DNA of 64,000 nt, from the IMG/VR virus record IMGVR_UViG_3300035671_000001, positions 1 to 64,000 of that record. One strand, given 5' to 3'. This DNA comes from a virus. Below the pieces are notes generated by a model that did not search any database, was not told the origin of the DNA, and was given only the letters and a program-made list of their open reading frames with translations. The position numbers and the translations under genes are program-made. Shown here in pieces: positions 5,171 to 50,216 of the stretch; position 1 is the first letter of the stretch, and each line of letters opens with the position of its first letter.

Positions 5171-5276
5171 TCCCTCGACCTCACGCACCCCGTCGGGACG
5201 TTAAGCGTGATTCGCAGATTTCGGCAAGAATAAAATGCGCCTTGTGCACTCGGACAATCTGGCCTACATACAGATG

Positions 5277-5352
5277 GCGAGCCTAGATCAGCGAGAGCAC
5301 CATATGCCGAGAGCGAGCCAGGAGACCTGAGAGCACCACGATCCGATAGCGC
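5277..5352 (+). ncRNA. TIGR mini-array, 2 units
   Basis: GCGAGCC-TAGATCAGC-GAGAGCACC-ATATGCCGA-GAGCGAGCC-AGGAGACCT-GAGAGCACC-ACGATCCGA. Confidence 0.85.
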
Positions 5353-5384
5353 CATTAACCCCAATAGACTGAAGAGGTAGAAAA

Positions 5385-6320: not shown

Positions 6321-6460
6321 GAGCCACCCGCAGGGAGTGCACCAAAAGGCGAGAGCGAACCACGACAGTTGAGAGTACCAGATCATCCGAGTGAGCCACG
6401 ACACTAGAGAGCACCAGATCATTCGAGCGAGCCATAACTGAAGAGAGCACCACGACGAAG
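6321..6460 (+). ncRNA. TIGR mini-array, 4 units
   Basis: 36-nt period with alternating GAGCGAGCC and GAGAG[CT]ACC repeats and 9-nt spacers. Confidence 0.9.
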
Positions 6461-12148: not shown

Positions 12149-12480
12149 GCATGGAAGAAGAATTCGAAAAGATAGTGCCAACATATCGTGCACCTGAACA
12201 ACGAAGCAACGGGCGCACTGACTTCGTGCATCTAGCTGAGCAAGTTGCACAAGCGATGATCCAATCCTGCGAGGAGCAGGTTGCTAAGGCGCAAACTACA
12301 TTGGAGCGGACCCGTAAGGATGCCGAGGAGCTTCTGGCAGCGGTCAAGAGCAAGGATCGTGAGATAGTCGACATGACGAATCGGATCGCAGCGTTAGGCG
12401 AGCAGGTACTTGAAGCAAACCGTGCCTTTCATGCTACGATAGACGCAAGCCAGGAAGATCGAGAGCACCATAAGAGTTGA
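12145..12480 (+). CDS. Coiled-coil hypothetical protein whose 3' end lies in a TIGR unit
   Basis: AAGGAG RBS; stop codon at 12478-12480 falls inside the array. Confidence 0.6.
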   Translation: MSMEEEFEKIVPTYRAPEQRSNGRTDFVHLAEQVAQAMIQSCEEQVAKAQTTLERTRKDAEELLAAVKSKDREIVDMTNRIAALGEQVLEANRAFHATIDASQEDREHHKS

Positions 12481-12809
12481 GCGAGTCATTCCCTCCGAGA
12501 GCACCAAACAAGCCGAGCGAGCCACGAGCGCTGAGTGTGCCCATACACCGGAGCGAGCCAAAGTAGAGGAGAGCACCATTTCCGAGGAGCGAGCCAAGAG
12601 CGGCTAGAGCACCACGCGAGAGGAGCGAGCCAAAAAGCAGAGAGCACCAAATAAGCTGAGCGTTAAGCCAGTGAACGGGTGAGCACCAAGTCGCGCGAGC
12701 GAGCCACGGGCTGGGAGAGCACCACCGAAACTGAGCGAGCCACTTCTACGGAGAGCACCAGACACGTTGAGCGAACCATGACTTCAGAGAGCACCCGAGA
12801 AATTGAGCG
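12445..12809 (+). ncRNA. TIGR array, 10 units
   Basis: 36-nt dual-repeat periodicity. Confidence 0.9.
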
Positions 12810-13122
12810 AGCGTTGCTTCTGTCAATCGAAGAAGATGACTGGAGTAAACGCTCGCTCACTGACGCCAGCGGCAAGGTGATTGGATTCTTCTTGCACCCG
12901 GAGGATCGCGATCTCGCAGTGAGCGCGCTCGAAGCGCAGAGCAACGTGCTCACTATGATGGACACATTCGTCGAGGCGCTATCCTACATTGCCAATCCAG
13001 ATACTGATCCGGAAGCGGCACGCGCGGTCGCTGCCAAGTGCGCTGACAATGCGAAGCGCTATGCCGACTTGTTCTGCAAGATTACGCCCGTCGAATTTAT
13101 AACAACCATAGTGCCATCATAA
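12778..13122 (+). CDS. Hypothetical protein, probably starting within the last TIGR unit
   Basis: In-frame ATG at 12778; a guide matches its DTFVE codons synonymously, supporting this frame. Confidence 0.5.
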   Translation: MTSESTREIERALLLSIEEDDWSKRSLTDASGKVIGFFLHPEDRDLAVSALEAQSNVLTMMDTFVEALSYIANPDTDPEAARAVAAKCADNAKRYADLFCKITPVEFITTIVPS

Positions 13123-15982: not shown

Positions 15983-16059
15983 GTGCGAGCCAGCGAAAAC
16001 GAGAGCACCACAGCAGGAGAGCGAGCCATCGAGGCCGACAGTACCATAAACGACGAGCG
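15983..16059 (+). ncRNA. TIGR mini-array, 2 units
   Basis: GTGCGAGCC-AGCGAAAAC-GAGAGCACC-ACAGCAGGA-GAGCGAGCC-ATCGAGGCC-GACAGTACC-ATAAACGAC-GAGCG. Confidence 0.85.
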
Positions 16060-16365
16060 AAATTTATTTTCGTCGTGACGAACCCAAGCAACACGGGCAC
16101 TTATTGAATCGGAAGGCGGGATCGGTGCCGTACTTGTGCCGGTCCCGCCTAGAGTCAAGTCAGCGAATTGCCGCGAGAAAGCACTGTGCCGCAACGGCTT
16201 CTTGCATTCGACTCGCCGCAAGTCGCAAAAGTCGCGGACCCCATATGCTAGGATGTAAGCGTCGATCGGGAATGAGCCCGAGCGACGGGCTGTTTGATAG
16301 GTGAAGCCCGAATGAGGAAGGCGCGCCAGCCGCGAGCTGACGCGCCTTAGAGGAGAACCAATGCG

Positions 16366-16809: not shown

Positions 16810-16812
16810 GTG

Positions 16813-17178
16813 GGCTCGCTCCTGCGCCTTGGTACTCTCTACAGCGCTGGCTCGCTCATGCAATGTGGTGCTGTCACTTCTTTTGGCTCGCTCTCAAAAC
16901 GTGGTGCTGTCTCTTGATGTGGCTCGCTCGTCCGACTTGGTGCTCTCCACCAATATGGCTCGCTCCGCCGATATGGTGCTCTCAGACTCCACGGCTCGCT
17001 CTCGACCTATGGCGCTCTCAACGGGCGTGGCTCGCTCCGGCGATCTGGTGCTCTCGCGCTGGTTGGCTCGCTCCGGATTTCTGGTGCTCACAGATCACGT
17101 GGCTCGCTCGCTAAGCGTGGTACTCTCGTCTCGTATGGCTCGCTCTCCCGGCTTGGTGCTCTCAGAGACTTTGGCTCG
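16813..17178 (-). ncRNA. TIGR array, 10 units, minus strand
   Basis: Plus strand shows GGCTCGCTC-N9-GGTGCTCTC-N9 repeated ten times. Confidence 0.9.
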
Positions 17179-17293
17179 TCAGCGCCCTCTTTACATTTGC
17201 GGCCATTATGGCCTATGGAGGGACAGCCGCCCCGGCTCGCCGCGCTAACGGACGAGCCAGGACTTGCAAAGGTGACCGTTGGAGGCGGTCGCA

Positions 17294-20617: not shown

Positions 20618-21709
20618 ATGGCAAAACGTCCTACTCATAAGAAGTGTCGGCAGTGCGGCGAATGGTTCATGCTCGGTAAGTACGAGCGCCTCACGCGGAA
20701 GTTCTGCACTTATAGCTGCGCGTCCACACATCGCAACGCGCAGCCGAAGTGGAAAAAGCGTCAGAGTAAACTGATGAAAAAGTTGGCGACGCCGGAAGTC
20801 ATGCGCGAACGCTCGCTCAAGATGTGGCGTGATCCTGCCATGCGTGCTCACCTGTCGGAGAAATCACGACAGCAGGCCAACACCAAAGAGCATCACGCCT
20901 GGATGATAGAGCACAATAAGAAACTGTGGACGGCTCCAGAGTACGCCGAATTTCGACAGCAGCACAGTGAGCGCACTCGCAAGACGGCCAAGAAACAATG
21001 GGATGATCCGGCGTTTCGCGAGAAGATTAGTGCCTTGACGACCGAGGCGAATAAGAAGCGCTGGGCCGATCCGGAATACAAAAAGCGAGTCGGCTTCAAG
21101 ATCCGTATCGCATTCGCTCAGCCGTTGTCAAAAGCAAAGCGTTCAAAGAGTTCACGCAAACAGATGATGAGACCGGAGCAGCGAACGCGGATAAGTAAGC
21201 TATCGAAAGAGCTGTGGCAGAATCCGGAGTACCGCGCCCTCGTAACCGAAAGCAGCCGAGCTGCAGCAATCAGGAATTATCGCAATCCATTTTACCGAGT
21301 AAAGAAACTTGCGGCGTTACGAAAATGGGTGCAGTCGCCAGAAGGCCGCGCACAGATGTCCGAACTCAATAAGAAACGTTGGGAGGACCCGGAATATCGT
21401 GCGCGGCAAAAAGCTCTATGGACGCCAGAAAAGAGCGCCGCGCTAAGTGAACTGAATAGAAAACGATGGGCTGATCCCAAGTTCAAAAAGCGCGTGGCAA
21501 AGAAGATTAGTAAGGCGAGACTCGAGAACACCAAGACACTCAGTGAGCAGAGCGAGCGAAGCAAAAAGCAATGGGCCGATCCAGAATTTAAGGCGCGTGT
21601 GAGTAAAAAAATCAGTAAGGGAAAGCGAGCCAAAAAAAAAAACGAGAACACCATCCAAGTTGAGCGAGCCACCAGAACTGAGAGTACCCGAAAAGGCGAG
21701 CGAGCCTAG
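20618..21709 (+). CDS. Zn-finger plus W-x-D-P-E-[YF]-R repeat (NUMOD3-like) basic nucleic-acid-binding protein
   Basis: KCRQCG...KFCTYSCA; about 10 K[KR]xWxDPE[YF][RK]-like repeats; C-terminus reads into the TIGR array. Confidence 0.65.
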   Translation: MAKRPTHKKCRQCGEWFMLGKYERLTRKFCTYSCASTHRNAQPKWKKRQSKLMKKLATPEVMRERSLKMWRDPAMRAHLSEKSRQQANTKEHHAWMIEHNKKLWTAPEYAEFRQQHSERTRKTAKKQWDDPAFREKISALTTEANKKRWADPEYKKRVGFKIRIAFAQPLSKAKRSKSSRKQMMRPEQRTRISKLSKELWQNPEYRALVTESSRAAAIRNYRNPFYRVKKLAALRKWVQSPEGRAQMSELNKKRWEDPEYRARQKALWTPEKSAALSELNRKRWADPKFKKRVAKKISKARLENTKTLSEQSERSKKQWADPEFKARVSKKISKGKRAKKKNENTIQVERATRTESTRKGERA

Positions 21710-22066
21710 CAGACGGACAGCATCATAATAGACGAGCGAGCCAAGATTAGTGAGAGCACCACGTCCGACGAGCGAGCCACGAAAGTTGAGAGCACCAAAG
21801 TGGCAGAGCGTAGCCAGAGAAAGTGAGAGCACCATTTTGAGCGAGCGAGCCATGTCCTGTGAGAGTACCAGACAAGACGAGCGTTAAGCCACTTGAAGCG
21901 AGAGTACCAAAACGAGTGAGCGAGCCAAGCGCGAAGAGAGCACCATGCAAGTTGAGCGAGCCATGTCCCATGAGAGTACCAAAAATCAGGAGCGAGCCAA
22001 GCGAGCCGAGAGCACCAATAGTCAAGAGCGAGCCATAACTACAGTGAGTACCAGAACAGGAGAGCG
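21623..22066 (+). ncRNA. TIGR array upstream of tas, about 12 units
   Basis: 36-nt dual-repeat periodicity ending 3 nt before the tas ATG. Confidence 0.9.
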
Positions 22067-22069
22067 AAA

Positions 22070-22858
22070 ATGACAGACGTTGCAGCAGTCCAAGCCTTAA
22101 CGCGTGATCTACGAAACGCCGCCGCGACAATGACGCGAGACGAAGCGCGATTCCTCGTTGATGCGTATTACATCATTCAAGACGATCGGAAGCGATCGGC
22201 CAACCAAGTGCGTTCTATGAAGGAGGAGCCACACGCCGTCCTTCAGTGGTTCTTCGATCAGAACGTCACGCTTGAAGGACAAATCAAGCGCGCCCTCGAT
22301 TCGTATTCCGACGCCAGCAAGATCGGCCTTTGGATGAAAGGAGTTTACGGAATCGGCCCGGTGATCGCGGCCGGGCTGCTCGCGCATATTGAGATCGACG
22401 ACAGCACTCCAACCGTGGGTCACATCTGGCGCTTTGCCGGACTTGATCCGACGGTGAAGTGGGAGAAGGGCCAGAAGCGGCCGTGGAATACTCAGCTCAA
22501 GACGCTGTGCTGGCACATCGGGCAGAGCTTCATGAAATTCTCAGGCCGCGACGAATGCCGCTATGGTAAGTTCTACCTTGCCCGGAAAAAGTTTGAAGTC
22601 GAGCGCAACGACTCAGGCGAGAACGCTGAGCTGGCGAAGACGCTGTTGCCGAAGTTCAACAAGAGCACCGACGCATACAAACATCTGCTCGGTGGGAAGC
22701 TGCCGCCGGCACAGATCGATGGGCGTGCACGTCGGTGGGCGGTGAAGCTTTTTCTCTCCCACATGCATGCTCAGTGGTTTAGATTGGAATTGGGCAAGGA
22801 GCCCCCCAAGCCATACGCGATTACGCAGCTCGGACATGGACACATGATTGAGCCATAG
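22070..22858 (+). CDS. tasA: TasA-like Nop-domain RNA-guided DNA-binding protein (IS110/IS116 Tnp_20-related; no RuvC or HNH domain)
   Basis: Coiled coil followed by GIGPVIAAGLL ... IWRFAGLDP ... WN..LKTLCW.IGQSF ... Y..RK ... ARRWAVKLFL; lacks a DEDD RuvC domain and the IS110 catalytic SG loop; embedded in dual-spacer arrays. Confidence 0.85.
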   Translation: MTDVAAVQALTRDLRNAAATMTRDEARFLVDAYYIIQDDRKRSANQVRSMKEEPHAVLQWFFDQNVTLEGQIKRALDSYSDASKIGLWMKGVYGIGPVIAAGLLAHIEIDDSTPTVGHIWRFAGLDPTVKWEKGQKRPWNTQLKTLCWHIGQSFMKFSGRDECRYGKFYLARKKFEVERNDSGENAELAKTLLPKFNKSTDAYKHLLGGKLPPAQIDGRARRWAVKLFLSHMHAQWFRLELGKEPPKPYAITQLGHGHMIEP

Positions 22859-24779
22859 GGTTTGAGAGCACCATCGAAGTCGAGCGAGCCACACGGACAG
22901 AGAGCACCACGATCATGGAGCGAGCCACGGACCTAGAGAGCACCACATAGGCGGAGCGAGCCAGAACACTTGAGAGCATCACGCGTGAGGAGCGAGCCAG
23001 ACGAGACGAGAGCATCATCCTCGATGAGCGAGCCACTGCGGCTGACTGTACCTATAGGAACGAGCGAGCCATTCTACACGAGAGTACCAAGCGAGCCGAG
23101 CGTTTCAGCCATGTAGAACGACAGCATCAGAGCCGAAGAGCGAGCCATGGGAGATGAGAGCACCACGTTGACAAAGCAAGCCATGATCTTTGAGAGCACC
23201 AAGCGAGCCGAGCGTTAAGCCAAGGAGCAAGAGTGCACCACATTGTGCGAGCGAGCCAGAAAACGCGAGAGTACCAAGGCTAGAGAGCGAGCCAAACCGT
23301 AAGAGAGCACCACAAAAAGCGAGCGAGCCGAGGGAGCTGAGAGTACCATATATGAGGAGCGAGCCATAAAGCGCGAGAGCACCATCCTCGACGTGCGAGC
23401 CATGCTCACTGAGAGTACCAAAATGAGCGAGCGAGCCAGAGCCCAAGAGAGCACCATCTGCTCAGAGCGTAGCCAAATGAGCAGAGTCGTACCAACATAG
23501 GAGAGCGTAGCCAAGATCGACGAGCGTACCCTGTCGGAGGAGCGAGCCAAAGACGATGAGAGCACCATGGTGAATGAGCGTAGCCACAAGACAGGACAGC
23601 ATCATGCGATTTGAGCGAGCCACTTCCCAAGAGAGTACCAAGCGAGCCGTGCGAGCCATGGGTAGCGACAGCACCATATGAAGAGAGCGAGCCACCGTTG
23701 ATGAGAGCGCCATGCCAAGCGAGCGAGCCACAGAACTTGCGAGTACCATGTCGTAGGAGCGAGCCAGCGGTAACGAGAGTACCATGGCGACGGAGCGAGT
23801 CATCGCCGCAGAGAGCACCACACGAAGTAAGCGAGCCAATGCGCGTCGAGAGTACCAAATAAGATGAGCGAGCCATGCAGGACGAGAGCACCATCACGCC
23901 AGAGCGCAGCCACAGCCACAGAGAGCACCATCGCTTAAGAGCGAGCCTTACCAGACGAGAGTACCCTACGATCAGAGCGAGCCAAGTCACAGGAGAGCAC
24001 CAAGCAAGGAGAGCGAGCCAGGGCGAGAGAGAGCACCACTACGCGCGAGCGAGCCACGGCGATTGTGAGTACCACGAAAAATGAGCGAGCCTTGTAAGAG
24101 GAGTGCACCAAATCATATGAGCGAGCCTTCGGCCGGGTGAGTACCATTGAACATGAGCGAGCCGGAAAACGCGAGAGTACCAAAAAGCGTGAGCGAACCA
24201 ATGACGAAGAGAGTACCAAAAGGAATAAGTGAGCCAGGGTGTGAGAGAGTACCAAGCGGGCCGAGCGTAGCCATCGGCAGGGAGCGTGCCATATGATCAG
24301 AGCGCTAGCCACGTATGATGAGAGCACCAAGCGCAGTGAGCGAGCCAGTAGCCAAGGGAGCACCAAGTCGGCCGAGCGTTTCAGCCATGCTGATGGAGTT
24401 GCACCACATCAGACGAGCGAGCCTTCCCGCCGGAGAGTACCAAGCAAGCTGAGTGAGCCGTGAAGTCTGAGAGCACCATATCGGCGGAGCGAGCCACGCC
24501 GAACGACAGTACCAAACCCGCCGAGCGAGCCAACGCGATCGAGAGTACCAAGCTGACCGCGCGAGCCATCGACCGCGAGAGCACCATTGCGCATGAGCGA
24601 GCCACGTCGATCGAGAGGACCAAACCACAAGAGCGAGCCAACCAGCGCGAGAGCACCAGATCGCCGGAGCGAGCCATACCGTTTGAGAGCACCACAGAAG
24701 CTGAGCGAGCCTGCGCAGTAGAGAGCACCAACGCAAGAGAGTGAGCCACCCACGATGAGAGTACCACGCCCCGTGAGCG
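22850..24779 (+). ncRNA. Main TIGR array, about 53 units
   Basis: GAGCGAGCC-N9-GAGAG[CT]ACC-N9, period 36 nt, with occasional 1-4 nt insertions in the GAGCG/AGCC repeat. Confidence 0.95.
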
Positions 24780-24849
24780 TCCTCCGAGAATAGCGGGGAG
24801 AACGTAAGCAATCGGACTCGACTCTAACGGCCGAATCGTTTTCAAAGAG

Positions 24850-24886
24850 AAGGCCCGCTCGGGCGGCGAACCCCGGCGGGCCTTTA
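24850..24886 (+). terminator. Hairpin closing the main array transcript
   Basis: AAGGCCCGC...GCGGGCCTTT. Confidence 0.5.
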
Positions 24887-25573
24887 ACGCGAGCAACCTA
24901 TTATTCTAAGGCGGGTTGCTGCGCTCCTCGAACACCTGTGAGGCAGGTGCCGATGCACAATACCTACATTGCGATTCGGTTCCGCGCAAGATTTTGTGCA
25001 CAGGGTTATGCCCTGTCCACAAAGTGTTGTGTCTGATTTGCGACATTAACGGGCTGCTAGCGAAAGCTGGTGGCCCTTTTTGCGTTTGCTGGAGCCTCGA
25101 ACGTGCCGCACGTCGGTAGAGAGGCGGCCAGCGCCCGGACCATCTAGGGCGATCTGAGGGATGCTGAGGCCGGTCAACAGATGGGCGATGAGCCCTGAGC
25201 AATACGGTCGGAGGCGCCTGGACCCTAGAGTCGCCGGGAAGGAGGCCGGGAGGCGGTGGTCTGGTGTTCGAACGCCCACTGCCGCCTCCTCGGTCCACTG
25301 CCCTGTGAGGCGGTGCGGAGCCGGGTGTGAGCGCCCTCTCGGAGGGAGTGCTGGCCGCAGGGCGCCGATAGCAAAATCATGTGGCCATGGACCGTGGCGG
25401 AGTGACGACCGTCATAGGTGCCCGTAAGGGCGGGACAGTCGTCCCCAGCACCGGATGACTTCTCAGCTCATGGTAGCTGAGCCTCATCCGGGTGTTGGAG
25501 GACTCTAGAAGGATTCGTAGCCGAGCAGAAAGCTCTCTTAGAGAACACTCTCTCAAAGGAAATGGATGGATTG

Positions 25574-27211
25574 ATGAAGACACTCCGCACCGATCAGACT
25601 GAGGCGATCGAGAACCTACGCGGTGCCATGCGGGAGACGCGGCGAGTCGTGGTTTCAGGCCCGACGGGCATGGGCAAGACGGTGATCCTCGCCGACATCG
25701 TCAGCCGGGCGCGGGAGAAGGATAAGAAAACGCTAATCACGGTGCCGGCGATCTCGCTGGTCGATCAGACGGTGATTGCGCTAGCGGCGCAGGGCATCAT
25801 GGATGTTGGCGTGATCCAAGCTCAACACCCGATGACGGATTGGAGCAGGCCCGTCCAGGTGGCGTCCATTCAGACGCTGCAACACCGCTGGAAAGAACGG
25901 AAGATGCCGAGCGCTGATCTGGTGTTGGTGGACGAAGTGCATCGATGGTTCAAGATATTTCCCGAGTGGATGCTGAGCCCGGACTGGCTGAAGGTGCCGT
26001 TCATTGGCTTCTCCGCGACGCCGTGGACGAAAGGACTGGGCAGGCTTTACGAACAGATGATCACTGCCAACAACATCAAGGCGCTGATCGACGCCAAGGT
26101 GTTGGTGTCGTTCCGAACGTTCGCACCTGACATGCCCGATCTTACTGGCGTGCGATCGGCAATCGACACCACGGGCGTGACTGACTTCGTGGCTGCCGAT
26201 CTTGACGAGATCATGCGGCCGAAGAAGCTGGTGGCGAACATCGTCAAGACATGGCTAGAGCTGGCGCAGGATCGGCCGACAGTGTGTTTCTGCTGCTCAC
26301 GCGCACATGCTGATCAGCTCACCAAGGAGTTCAATGAGGCGACTGTAGGGGCGGCGTATCTTGATTGCGACACACCGCTGAGCGAGCGCAACGAAGTGCG
26401 ACGACGGATGCTTGCTGGCGATGTGCAGGTGGTTTGTAATGTTGATGTGATCGGGCTCGGTGTTGATTGGCCTGAGGTGAGCTGCATCGTGTATGCGCGG
26501 CCGACTATGAGCGATATCCGTTTTGTGCAGAACGTGGGACGCGGACTGCGTGCGGCGGGCGGTAAGGAAGACTTGCTGATCCTGGATCACTCAACGACGA
26601 CGGCTCGGCTCGGATTCGTTGACGAGATATACGGCTATCATCCGACGCTCGACGACGGCAAGACGAAGGTGCCAGTGCAGGCAGTGCTACTGCCGAAGGA
26701 ATGCCCAGCGTGTCATCTGATGAAACCGCCGCGCGTTGCGGTCTGTCCGCACTGTGGGCACAAGGTCGAGCAGCATGTCGAGGCGGTTGCGGTCGAGCGC
26801 GGCACGTTGCGTGAGATCAAGCCGGGTGAGGACATGGCGCTGTTGCGCAAGCAGTTGCCGGGCAAGGAGTACGTGTTCGGGCAGCTCGTCTGGTACGGGC
26901 GCAAGAAGGGCTACAATCAATGGTGGCCCAACATGAAGTTCAAGGACATCTACGGCGTGACGTTTCCTCGGTTGCAATACGAGGACAAGATCACCTCGCC
27001 ATGTCCGGAGTTGATGACTTATATTTTTGACTCGACGGAGAAGTGGAAGAGCAAACAGAATTACGCGCGACGCAAGGCGCAACGGAAGACGAACGGCAAT
27101 GGCCATGGCAACGGCCACGACAGCGGCGCGTTGAGCGAGCGTGAGCAGGCGATCATCGATCGGGCACGTGACACCTTGATGAAAGACGAGGACTGGGAGG
27201 AGATGCGCTGA
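25574..27211 (+). CDS. SF2 DEAD/DEAH-box helicase (RadD/YejH-like) with Zn finger
   Basis: GPTGMGKT, DEVH, SATP, QNVGRGLR, CPAC...CPHC. Confidence 0.9.
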   Translation: MKTLRTDQTEAIENLRGAMRETRRVVVSGPTGMGKTVILADIVSRAREKDKKTLITVPAISLVDQTVIALAAQGIMDVGVIQAQHPMTDWSRPVQVASIQTLQHRWKERKMPSADLVLVDEVHRWFKIFPEWMLSPDWLKVPFIGFSATPWTKGLGRLYEQMITANNIKALIDAKVLVSFRTFAPDMPDLTGVRSAIDTTGVTDFVAADLDEIMRPKKLVANIVKTWLELAQDRPTVCFCCSRAHADQLTKEFNEATVGAAYLDCDTPLSERNEVRRRMLAGDVQVVCNVDVIGLGVDWPEVSCIVYARPTMSDIRFVQNVGRGLRAAGGKEDLLILDHSTTTARLGFVDEIYGYHPTLDDGKTKVPVQAVLLPKECPACHLMKPPRVAVCPHCGHKVEQHVEAVAVERGTLREIKPGEDMALLRKQLPGKEYVFGQLVWYGRKKGYNQWWPNMKFKDIYGVTFPRLQYEDKITSPCPELMTYIFDSTEKWKSKQNYARRKAQRKTNGNGHGNGHDSGALSEREQAIIDRARDTLMKDEDWEEMR

Positions 27212-27858
27212 TGTCCCAAAAGAAGCTCACGTGCGACATCTGTGGGAAGCTCTATGAGACGCTTGGCAGCTATGGGAATCATACTGATGACGAATGGTGG
27301 ATGTGTCTGAAATGCTTTGGGAAGGCGGATGAGTTGGCCGCAAAGGAGGACAGGTGGCCTGATGCGCGCGACTTTAAGACGGTGAAGGAGGAGATGCGCT
27401 GATGATGGGTGACTTCGACATCAAATGGATTGATCGCAAGCACGAACCGCAGTGCGCGCCGAATCCGGCCTATCCTCTCGGCATTGACATCGATCTATCC
27501 CAAGGCGCGACGAAGGCGTGCAAGTCGGAGTTGCCCTATCCGGCGAAGCGGATCGGATTTTATATGGTCAAGTGCAATATCTGCGGTCTCACGACGGTGA
27601 TTACCACGGCTGGGCGGAGTGACGATCCGCGCAGCATTACCTTGGCTTGCGGGGAGAAGACGCAATGAGTGACGAACCTGAATTTCATCTCGACTTCTCA
27701 GAGCAAGATCCTGAACTTCCCGAGGTTCATCCCGACGAGTGCCCGGATTGCAAAGTGCCTGCCGAGGTGGCCTACGGCATGGCGGGAGGCGGCATCGGCG
27801 CATATTCCTATTGTCCGCAATGCTACAAAATCCTCGCGAAGACACAGGACGAACAGTG

Positions 27859-28131
27859 ATGGCAGAGCGATTAGGTGATGCACCAATTGAGCCGGCCTAC
27901 ATCAAACAGATGAAAGCCATAGCGAGCGTTATCGACGAGACGTTCAACGGAGGGGCGAAAGGCAAGGATCGCAAGACGGGGTTCGTGCTGATGGTGTTTC
28001 CGTTCAACGAAGTAACCGAAGGCGGCCGCGCCAACTACATCAGCAACGCTGATCGCAAGGACATCGTGGTGATGTTGAAGGAGCAGCTCAAGCGCTTCGA
28101 AGGCCAACCCGATGTGACGGGGCACGCATGA
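27859..28131 (+). CDS. Hypothetical phage protein
   Basis: GFVLMVFPF...NYISNA.R.D motif. Confidence 0.55.
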   Translation: MAERLGDAPIEPAYIKQMKAIASVIDETFNGGAKGKDRKTGFVLMVFPFNEVTEGGRANYISNADRKDIVVMLKEQLKRFEGQPDVTGHA

Positions 28132-28297
28132 GCTTTACCGCTGAGGAGAAATACATCGAAGCCATGCGCGAGGTGAAGATGCGCAGGACGGTTTACGCGC
28201 GCACCGGCATTGATCCAAGCGAGGCCAAGCGCAGGATTGCGATAATGGAGGCCATCGCCGAAGATTATGAAAAGCTGGCGGAATCCGAGCGGCTGCT

Positions 28298-28576
28298 ATG
28301 ACTGTCCACACATTGAAATCGTGGCCCGAATTTTTTGAGCCTGTGTTGTCGGGCCAGAAGCAATTCGAGCTTCGGAAAAATGATCGCGACTTTCAAGTTG
28401 GTGATCATGTGGTGTTGCGCGAGTGGGAGCCGAATGGGGATCGCTACACCGGGCGCGAGATCAACAAGCGGGTGACGTATGTGCTGCGCGGCCTTGGCAG
28501 TGTCGGCACCATCGCGCCCTATAAGGGACTCTCGATGGGGTACGCCATCCTCGGGCTCGCGGATACTGACTGGTGA
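28298..28576 (+). CDS. DUF3850/ASCH (PUA-like) domain protein
   Basis: H.LKSWPEFF..V.SG.K.FELRKNDRDFQVGD...LREW. Confidence 0.85.
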   Translation: MTVHTLKSWPEFFEPVLSGQKQFELRKNDRDFQVGDHVVLREWEPNGDRYTGREINKRVTYVLRGLGSVGTIAPYKGLSMGYAILGLADTDW

Positions 28577-29988
28577 AGTGTAGAGGTTGCTTATGACAGC
28601 CGAAGAGTTGGGTACGCTGATTGCCACATTGCGGGCTGATGCCCAGAGTTTGCAACAGATCGAAAAGACGCTGGTTGAAATGAAGGATCAGATGCTCTGT
28701 GTGCATCTGAAGCTCAATGATTTAGCCACAGCCCTTGCAAGGGCCTTAGAGAAAAAGAAAAAGAAGTGACGCCAGACAAGCTGCAGGCATTTCGGATCAA
28801 GCTCACCAACGAGCTGTGGAAGTCCTTTCCACGTGCCGATGCGGCGTCGATCTGGAAAGCTGCAAACGTGTTGCTGCCTTTGATCATGCGCGAGAGCTTC
28901 AATCTTGTGGACATGCCACACGAAGCCGACTGCGTCTGTTGGAATTGCGTCATGGCGTTGCATAGTGATGCAGCGCGGCGACTCGCCGAGTGGCGGACGG
29001 CGCAGGAGGCGGCCGATGAGCATGACTGAATTGCAGCTCAAATTGTTTCGGATACCAGCCAGCAAGCGGATCAAGTTGACGCCCACGCAGCGTGAAGTGT
29101 TGGCGTGGGTGGAGTACAGCGGCGGCCGGTTCGCGGCATGGCCGCGCAGGTTTCAGGCGCGCACGCTGCGGGTGCTGATGCAGCATCGGCTCGTGCAATG
29201 CACAGGCCATTCGCCGGCGCGCTACGTGGTGACGCCGCTCGGGCGCGCAGTCCGAGGACGTCATGAGTCGGGCCGGCCGGGGGCAGCTCCGAAGATCACT
29301 AGCCAATTTTTGCCGGATACGGCGGAGGAGTAGGGAATTCGGCCTTCTGGCGGGGCTGGGGAGGCCACCGGTGAGGCGCAGCGGCGCCCCGCTAGTCCAG
29401 CCCCGAGCAGGCTCGAAAATGACGCCCACGGGCTCCCCACGGGCTCGCCAAAGCAGCGGAGTTAACCTGCCAAAATAATTAAAATGGCGTTGATATTGCT
29501 GGTGTTTTCGTTGCCAATTATTGCTTTCAAGCTTGATATTTAGGAAGCAGTTTCCTATACTACTTGGACTGCCCCATCGCATGCGGCCGCAAATGGCCCC
29601 CGAGACGGGCGGGAAAGGACCGGGAGCGGCCCTGTCGGCATCGATCGCCAGATCAGCCTTATTTCGAAATGCTCCCGCAGCCTGACGGCAGACTTCCAGG
29701 GGCCGTGTATCGCAGAATAACCCGAGGTGCGACGCGTCGCGCCCTGGTGGCTATCAGTCGATCAAGTTGCCGGCGAGTGCCCTTTGCGGCCGCTGTAGTT
29801 GGCCCTGATTTGATCGCGTGCTGCTGACGCGCTTGTGCCTCGGGACAAAAAACATCTGCGCACGACTCCAATAACGAAATTGCACCGCTTGCAAGGCGGT
29901 GCATTCCCAAGCGGCGGCTCGCTCCGCCGTTTCGGAATTCAGTGCACGTCGCTGCAACGGCGTTTCTCAAACCAACGGAGTCCCCATC

Positions 29989-30270
29989 ATGACTACTACC
30001 AATCTCACCACGACTATCGATCGGCTCGGCGTCATTCTAGCGCAAAAGGCCGAGTTGATAGCCGAAGAAAAGTTGCTCAAGGGCGTGCTCGTCGACAACG
30101 GCGCGGGCGCTTACGAGGGCGACTTCTACCGCGCCACCGTCAGCATCGCTGAGCGTGGCACGCTCGACATGAAAGCGGTACGCGAGAAGCTTACCGCGCA
30201 GTTCATTCGCGCCCACACCAACGTCACCGAAGTTACGACAGTGAAAGTCGTGGCTCGAAACGGAAAGTGA
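29989..30270 (+). CDS. Hypothetical early protein
   Basis: GGAG RBS within the repeated module. Confidence 0.6.
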   Translation: MTTTNLTTTIDRLGVILAQKAELIAEEKLLKGVLVDNGAGAYEGDFYRATVSIAERGTLDMKAVREKLTAQFIRAHTNVTEVTTVKVVARNGK

Positions 30271-30552
30271 ATGGGCCATGTACTGCACAGTCGTTTGCGT
30301 GGGGCTCGTATGCTCTGCGCTCTGCTCCACTCCCGATCCGTTGACTCGGCAAATTCAAACCGAGCAATATCTACAGCGGTTCGGGCCGTGCTCGCTGGGT
30401 ACATGTCCGCCGTTCAATCCTGGCGATCACATCCGCACCAACCCTTATACGAAGTGAATGCCGTCGGGCCGCGCTTTCGAGCGCGGTCCCGCAGTGTTCA
30501 TCTCTGAATGCTCGCCGCTTGCAACGGTGTCCCTCTCTAACGGAGTCACTCA

Positions 30553-31569
30553 ATGTCTCTTATTCTAGAGCATGAAATCACCATCGCTGACGCGGCGGTG
30601 ATGTTGGAAATCCTCACTGATGCCGGTGATCCGGTCATGATGTGGGGCAAGCCCGGTATCGGCAAGTCTGACATCGTGCACCAACTCGGCGCCAAGAAGC
30701 AGCGCAAGGTAATCGAGTTTCACGCGGCGTTGCGTGAGACTGTCGACTTGCGCGGTATTCCAATCGCTGATCCGGCGACGGGCACAACGAAGTGGTTGGT
30801 GCCCGCCGAGCTTCCGCAGGCAGAACGTGATGGCGAATTCGGCTATTTGTTCTGCGACGAGATCAACCAAGCGTCTCCCCAGATGCAAGGCGTTCTCGGT
30901 GGTTTGATACTTTACGGCGTCATCGGCGACTATCGCTTGCCTCCGGGCTGGCGCGTCATCGCTGCCGGCAACCGGGTATCCGATCGGGCGGCCGCTCAGC
31001 GTATGCCGACGCACATGCGAAACCGGTTCGCGCACTTGTTCATCATGCCTGATGTAAACGCATGGTGCGTGTGGGCGAACGCTAACAAGGTTGCGCCCGA
31101 GGTTGTCGCTTTCGTTCGGCTGCGGCGCGAGTTGCTGCACATGATGCCGAAGGGCGACGAGAACGCGTTCCCGACACCGCGCTCGCTGACGAAAGCTGCA
31201 AAGTATGTCAACGCGCCGACAGAACATCGGCTGCGTTTGTTTGCTGCTCACGTTGGTGACGCAGTTGCGGCGGAGCTGGACGGCTTTATCGAGCTTTACC
31301 GGTCACTCGGTTCGCTCGACGATATCGTCGCTGATCCAGACGGCGCTAAGGTTCCCACCGAACCGAGCTGCCGTTACGCGGTCTGCACCGGGCTCGGCCG
31401 CATCGCCACGCGCAAGAATTTCCCGAATATCATCCGGTATGCCAAACGGCTCAACCGGGAGTCGGAAGTGCTTGTCGTGACTGATGCGACTGGCCGCGAT
31501 GCCAGCCTCAAGGACACCACTGCCTATGGAAAGTGGGCGGTAGCCAACCAGGACTTAACGGTCCAGTGA
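30553..31569 (+). CDS. MoxR-like AAA+ ATPase
   Basis: GKPGIGKS, LFCDEINQA, AAGNR, RNRF, FPTPRS. Confidence 0.9.
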   Translation: MSLILEHEITIADAAVMLEILTDAGDPVMMWGKPGIGKSDIVHQLGAKKQRKVIEFHAALRETVDLRGIPIADPATGTTKWLVPAELPQAERDGEFGYLFCDEINQASPQMQGVLGGLILYGVIGDYRLPPGWRVIAAGNRVSDRAAAQRMPTHMRNRFAHLFIMPDVNAWCVWANANKVAPEVVAFVRLRRELLHMMPKGDENAFPTPRSLTKAAKYVNAPTEHRLRLFAAHVGDAVAAELDGFIELYRSLGSLDDIVADPDGAKVPTEPSCRYAVCTGLGRIATRKNFPNIIRYAKRLNRESEVLVVTDATGRDASLKDTTAYGKWAVANQDLTVQ

Positions 31570-31658
31570 GTACTGCAGAGGGCCGCGCGTTGCGGCCCTC
31601 GACAGTGTTTATCCGAACGCTCCTGCCTTGCAAGCGGGCACTCTTAGGAGTCACCACC

Positions 31659-31832
31659 ATGTCACTCAACGAAGCAATCGCCGTTGTAAAGGCGAATGGC
31701 TACCGCGTGAGCAAGCCGAAGGCGACGAAGAAAGTTGCCCCGCGCTTGAACGCAGTCGGTCGGCCGTTCTCGTCGTCCTACGATCCCAACTACAAAATGA
31801 AATACAAGCCAAAGCGCTACGCCTACCCGTGA
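31659..31832 (+). CDS. Small hypothetical protein
   Basis: GGAG RBS within the repeated module. Confidence 0.5.
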   Translation: MSLNEAIAVVKANGYRVSKPKATKKVAPRLNAVGRPFSSSYDPNYKMKYKPKRYAYP

Positions 31833-31925
31833 ACAGCGCAGAAGGCAGCCGCGTGCTGCCTTCGACAGTGTTCATTCGAACGCTACGCCTCTTGCAAATT
31901 GGCGTCCCTCACTGGAGTCACTACA

Positions 31926-32822
31926 ATGAATAAACCAATCAAAATCGCAACGCCGCTCTCTCGAAAGGCGGTGCTTGTCTCTGTGAATATCTCGCAGTGG
32001 ACGGCGCGAAAGTTGGATCGCAAGGTCACCGACGAAGTTAACCGCGCGCACAACGCGGCCAAGGACGCCGGGCGATACAACAAGCTCTTGATCGAGGCCG
32101 AGCACTTGGCCGAAGTCAACAAGCTGGTTTCGAGTGCCAGGAGCTTGCACTACAGCATGACGCGGCCGTGGGCGGACGAGGGTCCGCGCATTCTGCCAAA
32201 CGCGCTCTACTCGAAGTTCACTGACGCATTCCGTAACTTGAAGCGTGAGTTTCAGATTGCGGCTGATGCGTTCTGCGCCGGCTATCCGAGCTTCGTTGAA
32301 GAGCGGAAGAAATCTTTGAACGGCTTGTTCAAAGAAGCGGACTATCCGTCAGCGAACGACATCCGCAACAAGTTCAAGCTTGAATTGAACGTGTTGCCAT
32401 TGCCAGACGCAGAGGACTTCCGCACCGATCTTGATCCCGACACGCTCGCGGACATCAAACGCGAGATGAGCGAGACTTCCGGCAAGGTGCTTGACGATGC
32501 AATGAAACAAACATTCGTTGAGATCACCGAGCTGGTCGGCCACATGGCCAAGAAGTTGAACGAGCAAACGGCCAAGACCAAGCAGAAAGGCGAGCGCAAA
32601 TTCTATCTCGACTCGCTCGTCAACAACGTGCGCGACTTGGCTGACTTGTTGCCTGCCTTCAATCTGACTGACGATCCGAAGCTCACCGCTATCACCAACC
32701 GCATTGCTAAGGAGCTATGCGTGGAAGATGCGAAGGAGCTGCGGAAGAATGACGAAGCTGCCAAGACAGTCGCCAAAAGCGCTGACGAGATCGTGGCCGA
32801 GGTGGCCAAATTCCTCGGCTGA
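31926..32822 (+). CDS. DUF3150-like protein
   Basis: KAVLVSVNISQW.ARKLD ... T.PW...G.RILP ... LF...DYPS; typical partner of the AAA and vWA genes. Confidence 0.65.
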   Translation: MNKPIKIATPLSRKAVLVSVNISQWTARKLDRKVTDEVNRAHNAAKDAGRYNKLLIEAEHLAEVNKLVSSARSLHYSMTRPWADEGPRILPNALYSKFTDAFRNLKREFQIAADAFCAGYPSFVEERKKSLNGLFKEADYPSANDIRNKFKLELNVLPLPDAEDFRTDLDPDTLADIKREMSETSGKVLDDAMKQTFVEITELVGHMAKKLNEQTAKTKQKGERKFYLDSLVNNVRDLADLLPAFNLTDDPKLTAITNRIAKELCVEDAKELRKNDEAAKTVAKSADEIVAEVAKFLG

Positions 32823-32840
32823 TGATACTCTGGTGCTCGC

Positions 32841-32877
32841 GAGCCACTGCCTCGGAGAGTACCAAAGAACGAGAGCG
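32841..32877 (+). ncRNA. Solitary TIGR unit
   Basis: GAGCC-ACTGCCTCG-GAGAGTACC-AAAGAACGA-GAGCG. Confidence 0.85.
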
Positions 32878-32972
32878 ATACTAAGTGGGCCGTCCGAAAG
32901 CGCGGCCCATCATAGTGTTGCGGACTGCAACATTCCCCGCTGCAACGGGGCAATTTAATACGGAGTCACCAA

Positions 32973-34436
32973 ATGCATAACGACAAACATGCGATGGATC
33001 GTGTCCTAAAGGCGCGCTCCGCGCTGATATTGGCCCGCCGTTTTTACGGCGTACTGGTGTCGAATGTTGAGCCCGTTCTTTCGCATGACGTTCCGACGGC
33101 CGCGACGAACGGCAAGAAGCATTTCTGGAATCCCGATTTCATCGCTGAACTGACGCAGGCACGTCTTGAGTTTGTGCAAGCGCATGAGAGCGAACACGAT
33201 GCGCGCCACCATGGTACGCGTCGCGGCGATCGCGATCCGAAAAAGTGGAATGAGGCCACCGACTTTGGGATCAATATCGATCTCAAGGACGAGGGCTTTG
33301 ATGTTCCGCCATGGGCGTTGCTTGACGAGCGATTCCGAGGCATGAGCGCCGAGGATATCTACCGCATGCGCGAGCTTGACGAACAGAACAACAAGCCGCA
33401 GCCGCAGCCCGAGCCTGAGCCCGAACAGGGTGAGGATGAGGGCGACGACGCCGACACCGACGAGGACAAGGGCGACGAGCCTGAAGCTTCCGACGAGGAA
33501 GGTGACGAGGAAGGCGACGAGGGCCAAGGCGACGACGGTGAAGACGGCGACGAAGAAGGCAAGGGTGAAGGCCCGGCCGACGACGGCGATGAGGAAACCG
33601 ACGGCGGCCAAGGCGCTGGCGACAGCGAAGCGGAAGGCGACGGCACGGGCGAAGGCACGGGCAGCGCTGACGGCGACGCTGATGGTGAGCCCGGCGAGGG
33701 CCAGCCGCAATCGTCCGGTGATCCCGGCCGCTGCGGTGAGGTGCTCGACGCGGCTGAAGACGCTGGCGATCTCGCTGAGATCGATCAGAAGTGGGAACGC
33801 ACGGTACGGCAGGCGGCTTCGATGGCGAAAGCGATCGGGCAGCTTCCGGGTCATGTCTCCCGCGACATCGAACGGGCCAACAATCCTGGCCAGGACTGGC
33901 GCGAAGTTCTCCGCGCTTGGTTCGATCAAGGCTCGCTGCAAGTCGAGACTTGGAACCGGCCGAACCGACGCTTTGTCGGGGCTGGCTTGTTCCTTCCCGG
34001 CAAGCGGCGGGACGGTATCAACCGGGTTGCGTTTCTGATCGATACGAGCGGATCGATGGACACCATCGCGCTGGCTTGTATCAGGAACGAAGCGCAGGCC
34101 GCGCTTGATGACGGTGCGATTGATGAGGTGATCGCCGTGTACGGTGACACGCAAGTCACTCGCGTCGACACTTGGCGCACGGGCGACGAGATCGAGTTCG
34201 ATCCCCGTGGTGGTGGCGGCACGCGCTTGCGTCCGCTGTTCGATTATGTGGCCGAGCAGGCTGACGATTGCTCTCTGATCGTTTGCTTTACGGATATGGA
34301 ATTCGAAGATTTGAATTCCACCGAGCCTCCGGCTTGTCCGGTGCTGTTCGCAGCGACGGGCTATCCCGACAAGGTTCGCAGATATCTTGCCGATGCTCCT
34401 TGGGGAGCGGCTGGCATTGATGTCGGCGCCCACTGA
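32973..34436 (+). CDS. DUF2201-type metallopeptidase plus vWA-like domain protein
   Basis: TAATNG...NP.F, HESEH, acidic linker, DWR.VL, IDTSGSM, GGGGT, FTD. Confidence 0.85.
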   Translation: MHNDKHAMDRVLKARSALILARRFYGVLVSNVEPVLSHDVPTAATNGKKHFWNPDFIAELTQARLEFVQAHESEHDARHHGTRRGDRDPKKWNEATDFGINIDLKDEGFDVPPWALLDERFRGMSAEDIYRMRELDEQNNKPQPQPEPEPEQGEDEGDDADTDEDKGDEPEASDEEGDEEGDEGQGDDGEDGDEEGKGEGPADDGDEETDGGQGAGDSEAEGDGTGEGTGSADGDADGEPGEGQPQSSGDPGRCGEVLDAAEDAGDLAEIDQKWERTVRQAASMAKAIGQLPGHVSRDIERANNPGQDWREVLRAWFDQGSLQVETWNRPNRRFVGAGLFLPGKRRDGINRVAFLIDTSGSMDTIALACIRNEAQAALDDGAIDEVIAVYGDTQVTRVDTWRTGDEIEFDPRGGGGTRLRPLFDYVAEQADDCSLIVCFTDMEFEDLNSTEPPACPVLFAATGYPDKVRRYLADAPWGAAGIDVGAH

Positions 34437-36763: not shown

Positions 36764-37264
36764 ATGGATGCCAAATGGTACGTGGCTCAGCTCAAGAATG
36801 GGCGCGAACGGGTAGCGATACGCGGGCTTGGTGACCAGGGATTCGAGAGCTACTACCCGCAAATGCAGGTGACGCGAGCCCGCAATGGGCGCGTGATCGA
36901 TGACACTGAGCCGGTATTCCCCTGCTATTTATTCCTGCGATCACAGCCTGACGCCTACTCTTGGCGCTCCATCAACAACACCCGAGGCGTGATCCGGCTG
37001 CTGGGCAATGACCAGCCGTGCTCGCTCCCGGATCGCGACGTCGAGCACCTCAAACTGCGCGAGAAAACGGGACAACTGCGGCATCCGCACCGCCGCCAGA
37101 TCAGGGCTGGTGACGTGGTGGAGTTCAAGCTCGGCACCTTCGTCGGGCTCCAGGGCATCTGCCAGTGGACGCGGAGAGAGCGCATTTCCGTGTTGCTTCA
37201 AATTCTTGGCGGCAGTAGCGTCACCATCGCGCCACGCGATTGGCTCAAGCTCGCTGTTGCCTGA
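36764..37264 (+). CDS. NusG/RfaH-like antiterminator
   Basis: WYVAQ.K...E......L..QG.E.YYP ... FPCYLF ... I.NTRGV..L, and a KOW motif G.F.GLQG. Confidence 0.9.
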   Translation: MDAKWYVAQLKNGRERVAIRGLGDQGFESYYPQMQVTRARNGRVIDDTEPVFPCYLFLRSQPDAYSWRSINNTRGVIRLLGNDQPCSLPDRDVEHLKLREKTGQLRHPHRRQIRAGDVVEFKLGTFVGLQGICQWTRRERISVLLQILGGSSVTIAPRDWLKLAVA

Positions 37265-41270: not shown

Positions 41271-43469
41271 ATGGCGATGCAGTTCAGCACATGGATGACG
41301 CGTTGGGACCCGAACGAGTACACCTTGTTCCGGCATCGCCTGCGCGGCGTGCAGTTCATCGGCCCCGACGTCATGCGGCGCTGGGACGTCACGCTGGCGA
41401 CGAACAGCATCGACCTCAACGATCCGATTATTCCTGCCTTCAAGGACGCGCTGATCAAGGAGGGCATCCTCCTGCCCGCGCGCGCGGAGTTGATCTTCGC
41501 GGCGGAGACAGGAGGCGAGCCTCCAGCCGAAGGGCAAGGGCCGCAAGGTCCGGCGGGACCGCCCGGCGCGACTGGGCCAGCGGGGCCAGCAGGGCCAGCA
41601 GGGCCAGCAGGGCCAGCGGGTCCACCGGGCAGCGGAGCTGGTGGTGGAATCGAAGAGGCGCCGATCGACGGCCAGCTCTACGGCCGCAAGGATGCGGCGT
41701 GGTCGCAGGTCACTGGAACGGGCGGACAGCCGGGGCCGGCAGGGCCTCCGGGACCGGCAGGCGCGGACGGCAAGGACGGCAAGGACGGTAAGGACGGCAA
41801 AGACGGTGCGCAGGGGCCGCAAGGTGATCAGGGTCCGCAGGGCACGCAGGGACCGGCAGGACCGGCCGGGGCCGAGGGCGTGCAGGGTCCGGCAGGTCAA
41901 GGTGGCGTGCAGGGCGTGCAGGGTGAGCCGGGACCGCAGGGATCGCCTGGGCTGAATGGTGCGCCGGGGTTGCCGGGATCACCGGGTGCGCAAGGCCCGA
42001 CGGGCGCGGACGGCGCGCCAGGAGTTGGACTGCCGGGCGCGGCAGGGCCGCAAGGTTTACAGGGACCGGCGGGCGTGGACGGTGCGCAGGGTCCGGCTGG
42101 TCCCGAGGGCGCGGTCGGCCCGCAGGGCGTCGCGGGCGGAGTTGGTCCGCAGGGAATCCAAGGACCCGGAGGCCCGCAAGGCGTGCAAGGCGAGCCGGGG
42201 TCGATCGGCCCCGCCGGCGCGCAGGGTGCGCAGGGCATGCAGGGGCCGTCCGGTGACACTGTCACGATCATCGGCAGCTTCAGTAACAAAGCGATCGCTG
42301 ATCTACCGCCGTCAGGCTACGTGCCTGCGGATTGGGATTCGCCCGGCGTGCCGCCTCTGGGCAACCAGATGGCGAACGGCCAGGGCTTGTTGCACACGCC
42401 GACGCAAACGGTTTGCTTGTGGGTTGGTCCAACGCTCACGCCCTCGGGTTGGGTCGAGCTGGGGAATGTGCAAGGTCCGATTGGGCCGACTGGTGCGGCG
42501 GGGCCAGCAGGCGCGCAAGGTCCACAAGGTGTGCAAGGTCCGCCGGGAGCTGATGCTGCGCCGGGTCCAACGGGAGCAACCGGCGCGGCTGGTCCACAAG
42601 GGCCGCAAGGTGATCCGGGTGCGCAGGGTATTCAGGGCATACCGGGATCACCGGGCGCTGCCGGAGCGCAGGGCGCGCAAGGCCCGCAAGGCATCGCTGG
42701 TCCGCAGGGCGCCAAGGGCGATCCTGGAACGCCGGGCCTGACTGGCGCGCAGGGTCCGAAGGGCGATACCGGTGCGCAGGGAACGCCGGGATCGACGGGC
42801 GCGCAGGGTCCGGCCGGAACGCAAGGCGTGCAAGGCGTGCAGGGCGTGCCGGGTCCGACTGCGGTGTCGGCGAATGCAGGCAACACCGCGACGCTCGGCA
42901 CCGACAATCTGATCTATGTGCCGACGCTGCCTCCGGCCTCTAACGCTACGCCGACGATGGACGGCACGGCGACGGTTGGTGTTGCGACGGCCTGGGCGCG
43001 CGGCGACCATGTGCATCCGAGCGACACCTCGCGCATGGCGAAGGTCGGTACGACAGCCGTTGGCAACGCGGCGGCCGGCGAGATCGGCGAGGTGCTCTCG
43101 ACCAGCGTCACCACCGGCGTCACGCTGGCCAGCGGCACGGCGGCGAACGTCGGGACGCTGAGCCTGACCCCGGGCGACTGGGACGTGAGCGCGCAGCTCG
43201 TGTTCAACCCCGGCACCAACCTCACCATCATGGCGGCGGCGATCTCGCTGACCTCGGCGACACTGCCAACAGCAGCGCAGCTCGCAGCGGGCACCGGGGC
43301 GATGCAGCAGTTGCGCGCATCGTTCGCGGCCTCGGCGGCCGAGATGCTGCAGAGCGGGTCGTGCCGCGTGAACGTCAGCACGACCACGACCGTCTACATG
43401 GTGGCGATGGTGACCGGCACGGGGACGTGGACGGGGACCGGCTTCATCAGTGCGCGCAGGCGGCGCTGA
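41271..43469 (+). CDS. Collagen-like (G-X-Y repeat) fibre protein
   Basis: Long GPAGPQG repeats; EAP.DG..YGRKD..W; ARGDHVHP. Confidence 0.85.
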
Positions 43470-50080: not shown

Positions 50081-50216
50081 TCGACAAGAAGCCAGAGCCA
50101 GGGCGCTTCAACTGGGAGGAGGGCGACAAGGTGGAGGTTGTCGTCGAGTCCGAGCACAGTAAGACGAGCAAGACTACCAAAGACACCACCGACACCCATC
50201 GCAGGCGGGACGAGGA

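Follow-up and report, generated by a model that had tools for sequence, protein, structure and literature searches.

Dual-repeat TIGR-TasA systems have been described for FpTasA (Faure et al. 2025, PMC12045711) and MbTasA (Xu et al. 2026, bioRxiv 10.64898/2026.09.09.750476), and in published assays TasA proteins, including MbTasA, act as RNA-guided repressors (Xu et al. 2026); TasR loses its activity with mismatches in the seed or with double mismatches at the edge (PMC12045711). Both papers state the role of TIGR-Tas as an open question, and likewise its natural targets, which are open because guides of 16-18 nt yield many false matches. We analyzed a window of 64,000 nucleotides at the start of one 82,505-bp virus record (IMG/VR IMGVR_UViG_3300035671_000001). 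The window carries a phage-borne dual-repeat TIGR-TasA system of the type described by Faure et al. (PMC12045711): one 262-aa nuclease-free Tas gene, eight arrays and about 74 two-part guides. The system resembles the described ones in being phage-carried with arrays on both sides of tas, and differs from them in its unusually large load (about 74 guides in eight arrays over 27 kb, one array inverted, another consisting of a solitary unit with unrelated genes on both sides) and in that candidate natural targets can be proposed for it. Our proposal is that a few guides spell VWA and DUF3150 motifs as found in rival phages, and that silent differences let the resident alleles escape, a reading to which we give an even chance of being right. 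What goes beyond the literature is how large and scattered the guide load is, the two controls (re-pairing and codon-aware) and the candidate natural targets.

The phage protein matches the 331-aa chain of PDB entry 9mty, deposited as an IS116/IS110/IS902 C-terminal domain protein and which we take to be the published TasR, at E=1.5e-10 (query residues 37-173 on chain residues 125-260; phmmer against the PDB), TasH chains at E=5.8e-7 and the IS621 transposase at E=0.017; it also has a weak Pfam Transposase_20 match and a tblastn match in Salicola phage CGphi29. Because the alignment begins at query residue 37 and at residue 125 of the 9mty chain, the N-terminal nuclease part is missing, and a Pfam search of the protein found no nuclease domain (no RuvC or HNH); by these similarities the 262-aa protein is assigned to the TasA subtype, which lacks a nuclease. 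TasR (9mty) and TasH of Salicola phage CGphi29 (PDB 9vzx and others) have in common with it the Nop/IS110 C-terminal-type domain and, presumably, the two-spacer targeting geometry; unlike them, the phage TasA has no RuvC or HNH, and binding without cutting is therefore expected. The IS110/IS621 bridge-RNA recombinases are alike in a distantly homologous RNA-binding domain and a two-part guide, whereas the phage system has no DEDD/RuvC recombinase domain or transposon ends, and uses guide arrays, not a single bridge RNA. Virus-borne CRISPR directed at rival viruses or satellites is known, for example, from mini-arrays of archaeal viruses and from Vibrio phage ICP1 against PLE. The likeness there is of a mobile element with guides against close competitors, its own copy spared; the TIGR system differs in its effector family, in guides of 16-18 nt in two halves, in having no protospacer-adjacent motif and no known spacer acquisition machinery, and in an outcome that is probably repression, not cleavage.

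Read directly from the sequence, the array unit is 36 nt long and consists of repeat GAGCGAGCCA, 8 variable nt, repeat GAGAGCACCA and 8 variable nt; the two 10-nt repeats alternate, the second reads GAGAG[C/T]ACCA in the arrays, and the exact 18/36-nt period in all eight arrays is that of a dual-repeat TIGR array. We built the target 18-mer of each guide by placing the reverse complement of spacer B after spacer A, an order that we worked out ourselves and that agrees with the 3' overhangs reported for TIGR-Tas (PMC12045711). Each half carries the constant A that ends the preceding repeat, so 2 of the 18 positions are constant repeat bases and a 16/18 match is a 14/16 match in the variable core. 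Alternative geometries (reversed half order, gaps of 1-2 nt, wrong repeat phase) gave no enrichment in any target set, and palindromic, operator-like targets were rejected, spacers A and B being no more alike than in controls.

The first-pass annotation had listed six guide/site pairs as evidence that guides point at a cassette of AAA, DUF3150 and VWA genes and at other early genes, and had rested its case mainly on one 16/18 match and on the clustering of matches in the cassette. All six pairs are present in the sequence, with scores of 16, 13, 12, 14, 14 and 14 out of 18. As a null model we re-paired A and B half-spacers among units, which preserves the composition of each half-site, and searched the whole 82.5-kb genome, arrays masked, with 58 guides. 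Real guides had a best match of at least 14/18 in 43% of cases, re-paired controls in 44%; at least 15/18 was reached by 6/58 guides (3.1 expected) and at least 16/18 by 1/58 (0.12 expected), and no guide matched this genome at 15/16 or better. Within the cassette, real guides gave 93 sites against 109 for controls at 12/18 or better, 14 against 16.6 at 13/18, and 2 against 1.7 at 14/18. At 15/18 there were 2 real matches against 0.13 in controls (P=0.009, at a threshold chosen after the fact), both of which fall in the VWA gene and come from neighbouring units (24523 and 24559); pairs of matches of at least 15/18 within 500 bp of each other occurred in 5.5% of re-paired sets, so that the 16/18 match and its clustering do no better than controls. 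The annotation had named absence of enrichment over shuffled guides as the result that would count against it, and because that is what the genome-wide best hits gave, the nucleotide-level evidence fails: the raw matches of the six pairs are not above chance. It had also allowed that the more distant matches, of 12-14/18, could be chance, and this applies to the sites in the AAA (30800), DUF3150 (31961) and RecE (8250) genes, which find no support beyond chance; the QDWR site (33888) is supported by the codon-aware count given below. The match in the helix-turn-helix gene (11348, unit 24119), at 14/16 with four identical codons, is a single match that alone weighs neither way.

Tests of this kind are weak for diverged alleles, because at about 75% identity a homologous site has a score of 12/16, no higher than the chance background. 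We therefore counted in-frame near-matches of at least 13/16 in which the amino acid of every complete codon is unchanged, using an extended set of 74 guides and the same re-paired controls. In the true frames of the phage's own cassette, 3 real guides qualified against 0.17+-0.41 in controls (P=0.0007): unit 24523 at 33829-33844 (14/16, AIGQ), unit 23866 at 33889-33904 (13/16, QDWR) and the solitary unit 32837 at 32745-32760 (13/16, KNDEA), the last of these absent from the first-pass list. Four complete codons (AIGQ) are the same in unit 24523 and its full site 33828-33845, with one synonymous change (GGT versus GGG), and the solitary guide lies only 85 bp from its near-match. The 15/18 match of unit 24559 is of another kind, DRMR against YRMR (codons read by eye). 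Genome-wide, with rough gene calls, there were 6 peptide-identical near-matches against 2.45 expected (P=0.038); because the rough caller chose the antisense frame for the VWA gene, the AIGQ and QDWR sites escaped this run and one VWA site was counted in the wrong frame. Among 67 non-identical VWA homologues, real guides gave 27 peptide-identical sites against 8.8+-4.7 (P=0.001), an excess due for the most part to unit 23866, whose site is the conserved QDWR motif (14/16 in homologues L202, L215 and L249). The 66 AAA homologues and the DUF3150 homologue set yielded no codon-aware excess of guide matches.

A precedent within the family comes from a prophage of a cultured bacterium. Three cellular genomes hold tas loci (Acidobacteriaceae KBS 96, Halomonas NO4 and an alphaproteobacterial metagenome-assembled genome [MAG]), and in KBS 96 one of the five guides of a tas prophage (target TAAAAGCAGAATCGAA) matches perfectly just once in 6.7 Mb, against a first-order Markov expectation of 0.004 for the guide itself and of 0.015 for the five together. 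The site falls 25 nt into an 86-aa HTH_17 gene (6,329,742-6,330,002) that belongs to a second prophage-like element on the same chromosome; beside this gene are a divergent cI-like HTH_3 gene and an integrase, with HK97-type capsid and S78 protease genes 2-4 kb away. This element is related to the tas prophage (74% aa identity in the capsid and 62% in the C-terminal part of a 257-aa protein). Guides 4 and 5 have their best matches, 14/16 and 13/16, in the same 1 kb as the perfect target, where the tas prophage's own allele scores only 9/16 and 5/16; re-paired guides reach a maximum of 13 anywhere in 40 kb, and three wrong-phase control patterns gave no match in KBS 96. The 16/16 match fits the order A plus reverse-complement B, without a gap and with GAGCGAGCCA as edge repeat, which was the sole geometry searched genome-wide. 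That the guides of KBS 96 are aimed at a related co-resident element is thus well supported in one case. In Halomonas NO4, 1 of 4 guides matched, with a 1-nt gap, a GC-rich site in a 477-aa host ORF (open reading frame; chance about 0.03), and in the alphaproteobacterial MAG none of 10 guides matched; general silencing of host genes is therefore unlikely.

A further line of evidence is an independent exact match. We scanned IMG/VR for exact 16-mers of five guides, which gave 29 matches for unit 24523, 29 for unit 23866, 30 for unit 24415, 60 for unit 24559 and 22 for the solitary unit 32837. Among the 148 matches of the four array guides, only two, in the closely related contigs L143 and L173, fall in a cassette homologue: both belong to unit 24559 and lie inside a VWA homologue whose protein is 33% identical to that of the phage (peptide LDRMRK). 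We place this site at about 33860-33880 of the phage, between the two listed VWA sites (by-eye anchoring on a PGH...P motif, with no computed alignment), a position different from the resident near-match of the same unit at 33357-33374. The 22 matches of the solitary guide included no DUF3150 homologue in the 13 searchable records.

The phage has no close relative among GenBank phages, nor is it one of the Tunturi phages of Acidobacteriota. Contigs from soil, freshwater and marine sources commonly carry Tas homologues (at least 271 in metagenomes and 11 in genomes, confirmed by tblastn). The first-pass annotation had looked to perfect hits in relatives to show which genes are targeted, and none was found in three target sets. 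Tas-flanking DNA, searched for kin targeting with 531 guides over 92 tas loci and 870 kb, gave 0 perfect matches against 0.39 expected, and 80 cassette-bearing loci (651 kb) gave 0 perfect matches (0.00 expected) and 3 at 15/16 or better (1.04 expected). A complete 75.7-kb relative with terminal repeats (G001), about 72% identical in nucleotides over 24 kb and without tas or arrays, gave no enrichment either (0 guides at 16/18 or better with 0.19 expected, and 2 at 15/18 or better with 3.1 expected). This relative has no homology to about 11-25.5 kb of the phage (window 10982-25573), and the closest Tas (L001, 68% identity) stands amid unrelated genes; the tas-array module is thus mobile. Two 15/16 matches at gene starts in L001 were taken as chance because L001 has only tas and an array in common with the phage.

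The explanation that survives best beside our proposal, and one that we consider unlikely though serious, is chance: near-matches are expected, and the cassette cluster and the silent-site pattern are selections made after the fact. With about 74 guides of 16 variable bases set against 165,000 positions, a best match of 12-14/16 is expected for each guide, and several results weigh accordingly against the proposal. Real guides equal re-paired controls at the nucleotide level, best-match distributions included, in the phage's own genome, in G001 and in the 80 cassette loci, as they do in the 92 tas loci, where matches with at most one mismatch number 16 against 13.5 expected, and pairs of strong matches cluster in control sets as well. 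The cassette was picked after seeing the data, and the P value for its three codon-aware matches rises to about 0.015 when corrected for the choice among about 20 comparable regions. Among the VWA homologues, the count of guides that have a peptide-identical match is not above that of controls (6 versus 5.5), and the synonymous share of all mismatches is alike in real guides and controls (0.149 versus 0.155). At homologous positions in four closer VWA homologues the guides fit no better than on the resident allele, the 16/18 site (33828) scoring 13, 10, 6 and 10. Units 24523, 23866, 24415 and 32837 have no perfect target in about 85 cassette homologues or among the IMG/VR exact matches, the exact match of unit 24559 is confined to one lineage (with a rough chance probability of 0.02-0.05 that any of the 148 matches would fall in such a gene), and family spacers lack the codon periodicity seen in random coding 16-mers of the phage genome. 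Against chance stand three in-frame peptide-identical matches within 3.45 kb where 0.17 were expected, the independent exact match of unit 24559 in a VWA homologue, the closeness of the solitary guide to its own near-match, and the precedent of KBS 96.

It is improbable, in our assessment, that the spacers are relics of their origin, copied from the phage's own ancestral genes or those of a close relative, since drifted and without a present-day target. Synonymous-only divergence is a product of common ancestry under purifying selection, spacers differ by point mutations between near-identical strains, and no perfect target was found in the 80 cassette loci or in the IMG/VR scans of units 24523, 23866, 24415 and the solitary unit, all of which such an origin would accommodate. 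Array spacers, however, are under no coding constraint and their own drift would ignore codons; therefore the changes would have arisen on the gene side, or the guide tracks another real allele, and the exact match in L143/L173 and the 16/16 match in KBS 96 show live targets. Slightly less credible still is self-regulation, in which TasA with imperfect guides would bind the phage's own VWA and DUF3150 genes and tune their expression: TasA proteins do repress transcription in reporter assays and the guides lie in the same genome, one right beside its near-match, but a regulator of its own genes would be expected to match exactly, no guide does so at 15/16 or better, and TasR activity is lost with seed mismatches or double edge mismatches.

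We return to the proposal that a few guides spell rivals' alleles. From homology and the literature we infer that transcripts of the arrays would be processed to 36-nt guides, the two 8-9-nt spacers of each pairing with opposite strands of one 16-18-bp site, and that a nuclease-free TasA dimer would bind the site and block transcription or replication. About four guides would be aimed at conserved VWA/DUF3150 coding motifs as these are spelled in other phages, and the resident copies, differing at synonymous positions, would be spared if binding is intolerant of such mismatches; the likely use, and the presumed benefit to the phage, would be to interfere with competing phages, prophages or satellites that occupy the same host. 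The idea that guides are directed at the versions of resident genes in other phages has moderate support, and rival-phage targeting by this phage is plausible but unproven. For the first-pass view that early genes of related phages are preferred, this support, from the synonymous-only sites, the exact match in L143/L173 and the KBS 96 precedent, extends to VWA and perhaps DUF3150 and does not reach the AAA gene. Its description of the cassette as early, and of superinfection exclusion by a roadblock, may also be right, judging from the nuclease-free TasA and from published repression assays with other TasA proteins.

Most of the about 74 guides (roughly 70) have no identifiable target, and their composition may hint at where they point. 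Spacer T is depleted in the phage (18%, down to 9% at inner positions) and spacer GC is below genome GC (53% versus 59%); family spacers (the window and 69 related loci) are likewise below their own genomes in GC, T-depleted and without codon periodicity. The idea that spacers are samples of coding DNA was rejected: the family shows no lag-3 GC periodicity or cross-junction correlation, unlike random 16-mers of the phage genome; the phage alone gives z=1.9 in the expected class. The absence of codon periodicity in the family makes most guides unlike samples of GC-rich coding DNA and, taken with the low GC and T depletion, means that the targets of most may be non-coding or AT-richer early regions of the kind hit in KBS 96.

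Table 1. Coordinates of the TIGR-TasA system, the candidate target cassette and the KBS 96 case (window positions, unless a contig is named)
Feature	Position	Strand	Remarks
tasA	22070..22858	+	262-aa TIGR-associated protein, Nop/IS110 C-terminal-type domain, no nuclease domain; between the two largest arrays
Mini TIGR array	5276..5354	+	
Mini TIGR array	6335..6452	+	
TIGR array	12442..12814	+	about 9 units
Mini TIGR array	15983..16060	+	
Inverted TIGR array	16812..17190	-	about 10 units; guides in common with 24451-24676 of main array
Upstream TIGR array	21623..22053	+	begins inside 3' end of ORF 20618-21709
Main downstream TIGR array	22846..24766	+	about 53 units; holds units 23866, 24119, 24415, 24523, 24559
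Solitary guide unit	32837..32872	+	between DUF3150 and VWA genes; target AAGAACGACGAGGCAG (KNDEA)
AAA_5 (MoxR-like) ATPase gene	30553..31569	+	Pfam AAA_5 E=4.7e-6
DUF3150-like gene	31899..32822	+	Pfam DUF3150 E=4e-4, below curated cut-off
DUF2201_N metallopeptidase-like and VWA-like gene	32973..34436	+	main candidate target; Pfam DUF2201_N E=1.3e-36, DUF2201 E=5e-11
Near-match of unit 24523 in VWA gene	33828..33845	+	16/18, core 14/16
Near-match of unit 23866 in VWA gene	33888..33905	+	13/18, core 13/16, codons QDWR identical
Near-match of unit 24559 in VWA gene	33357..33374	+	15/18, not synonymous
Near-match of solitary unit 32837 in DUF3150 gene	32745-32760		13/16, all three differences synonymous
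tas prophage array, Acidobacteriaceae KBS 96	L086 10789-10996		five guides
KBS 96 guide target	L107 1501-1516 = G005:C1:6329962-6329977		16/16

Across the Tas family the repeat consensus GANNGANNCA / GAGAGNACCA recurs beside tas homologues at 69 loci on contigs from soil, freshwater and marine sources; both repeats also have conserved GA dinucleotides and a conserved CA at their end (a check for box C/box D-like motifs made on the repeat sequences only). In the alphaproteobacterial MAG (L084 10787-11174) the edge-type repeat alternates between GATCGAACCA and GAGTGAGACA, giving a 72-nt super-period. Several details of the phage arrays stand apart from the question of targets. The sequence AGCGAGCC, which is the edge repeat itself, occurs four times as a spacer (21999-22007, 23089-23098, 23201-23210 and 23640-23648), and the repeat after such spacers is often expanded to GAGCGTTTCAGCC or GAGCGTTAAGCC. 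The inverted array 16812-17190 (-) and positions 24451-24676 (+) hold ACCAGCGC/GATCGCCG in identical form, and TGGAGTCT/TATCGGCG in one of the two arrays corresponds to TGAAGTCT/TATCGGCG in the other; guides common to both suggest an array duplication followed by point mutation. ORF 20618-21709 (363 aa, without a Pfam family) shares its end with the opening units of the upstream array (from 21623), so that either its coding 3' end is overlapped by the array or the ORF is over-extended.

Guide 24011 (GGGCGAGA/CTACGCGC) has a 13/16 match at 36800-36815 in the phage's NusG-like gene (36764-37264) and a 14/16 match at position 50169 of G001, with the peptide GRERV unchanged at both sites. Elsewhere in the window, ORF 41271-43469 encodes 732 aa with collagen-like 9-nt (Gly-X-Y) tandem repeats in a stretch of 68% GC and is probably a fibre protein, and there was no integrase among the phage ORFs scanned.

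For guides this short, the re-pairing control has the merit of keeping the half-spacers and breaking only their pairing, and its codon-aware version has more power for diverged alleles. Acidobacteriaceae KBS 96 offers a cultured test case, in which a guide of one of two related prophage-like elements exactly matches the early regulator of the other. A broader view, in which TIGR-TasA guides would be allele-specific tools against rival mobile elements, spelled after the conserved coding sites or early-regulatory ones of competing phages, prophages or satellites, with the carrier's copy silently recoded and with the early HTH regulator in KBS 96 and rivals' VWA/DUF3150 genes as targets, falls in our judgment just short of an even probability. 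If it is true, these would be the first natural targets for the TIGR-TasA family, together with a culturable system for testing them; the KBS 96 prophage would act by silencing the early HTH regulator of the related element on the same chromosome, and TasA would serve, as an RNA-guided tool, the conflicts of phages with one another, not host defence.

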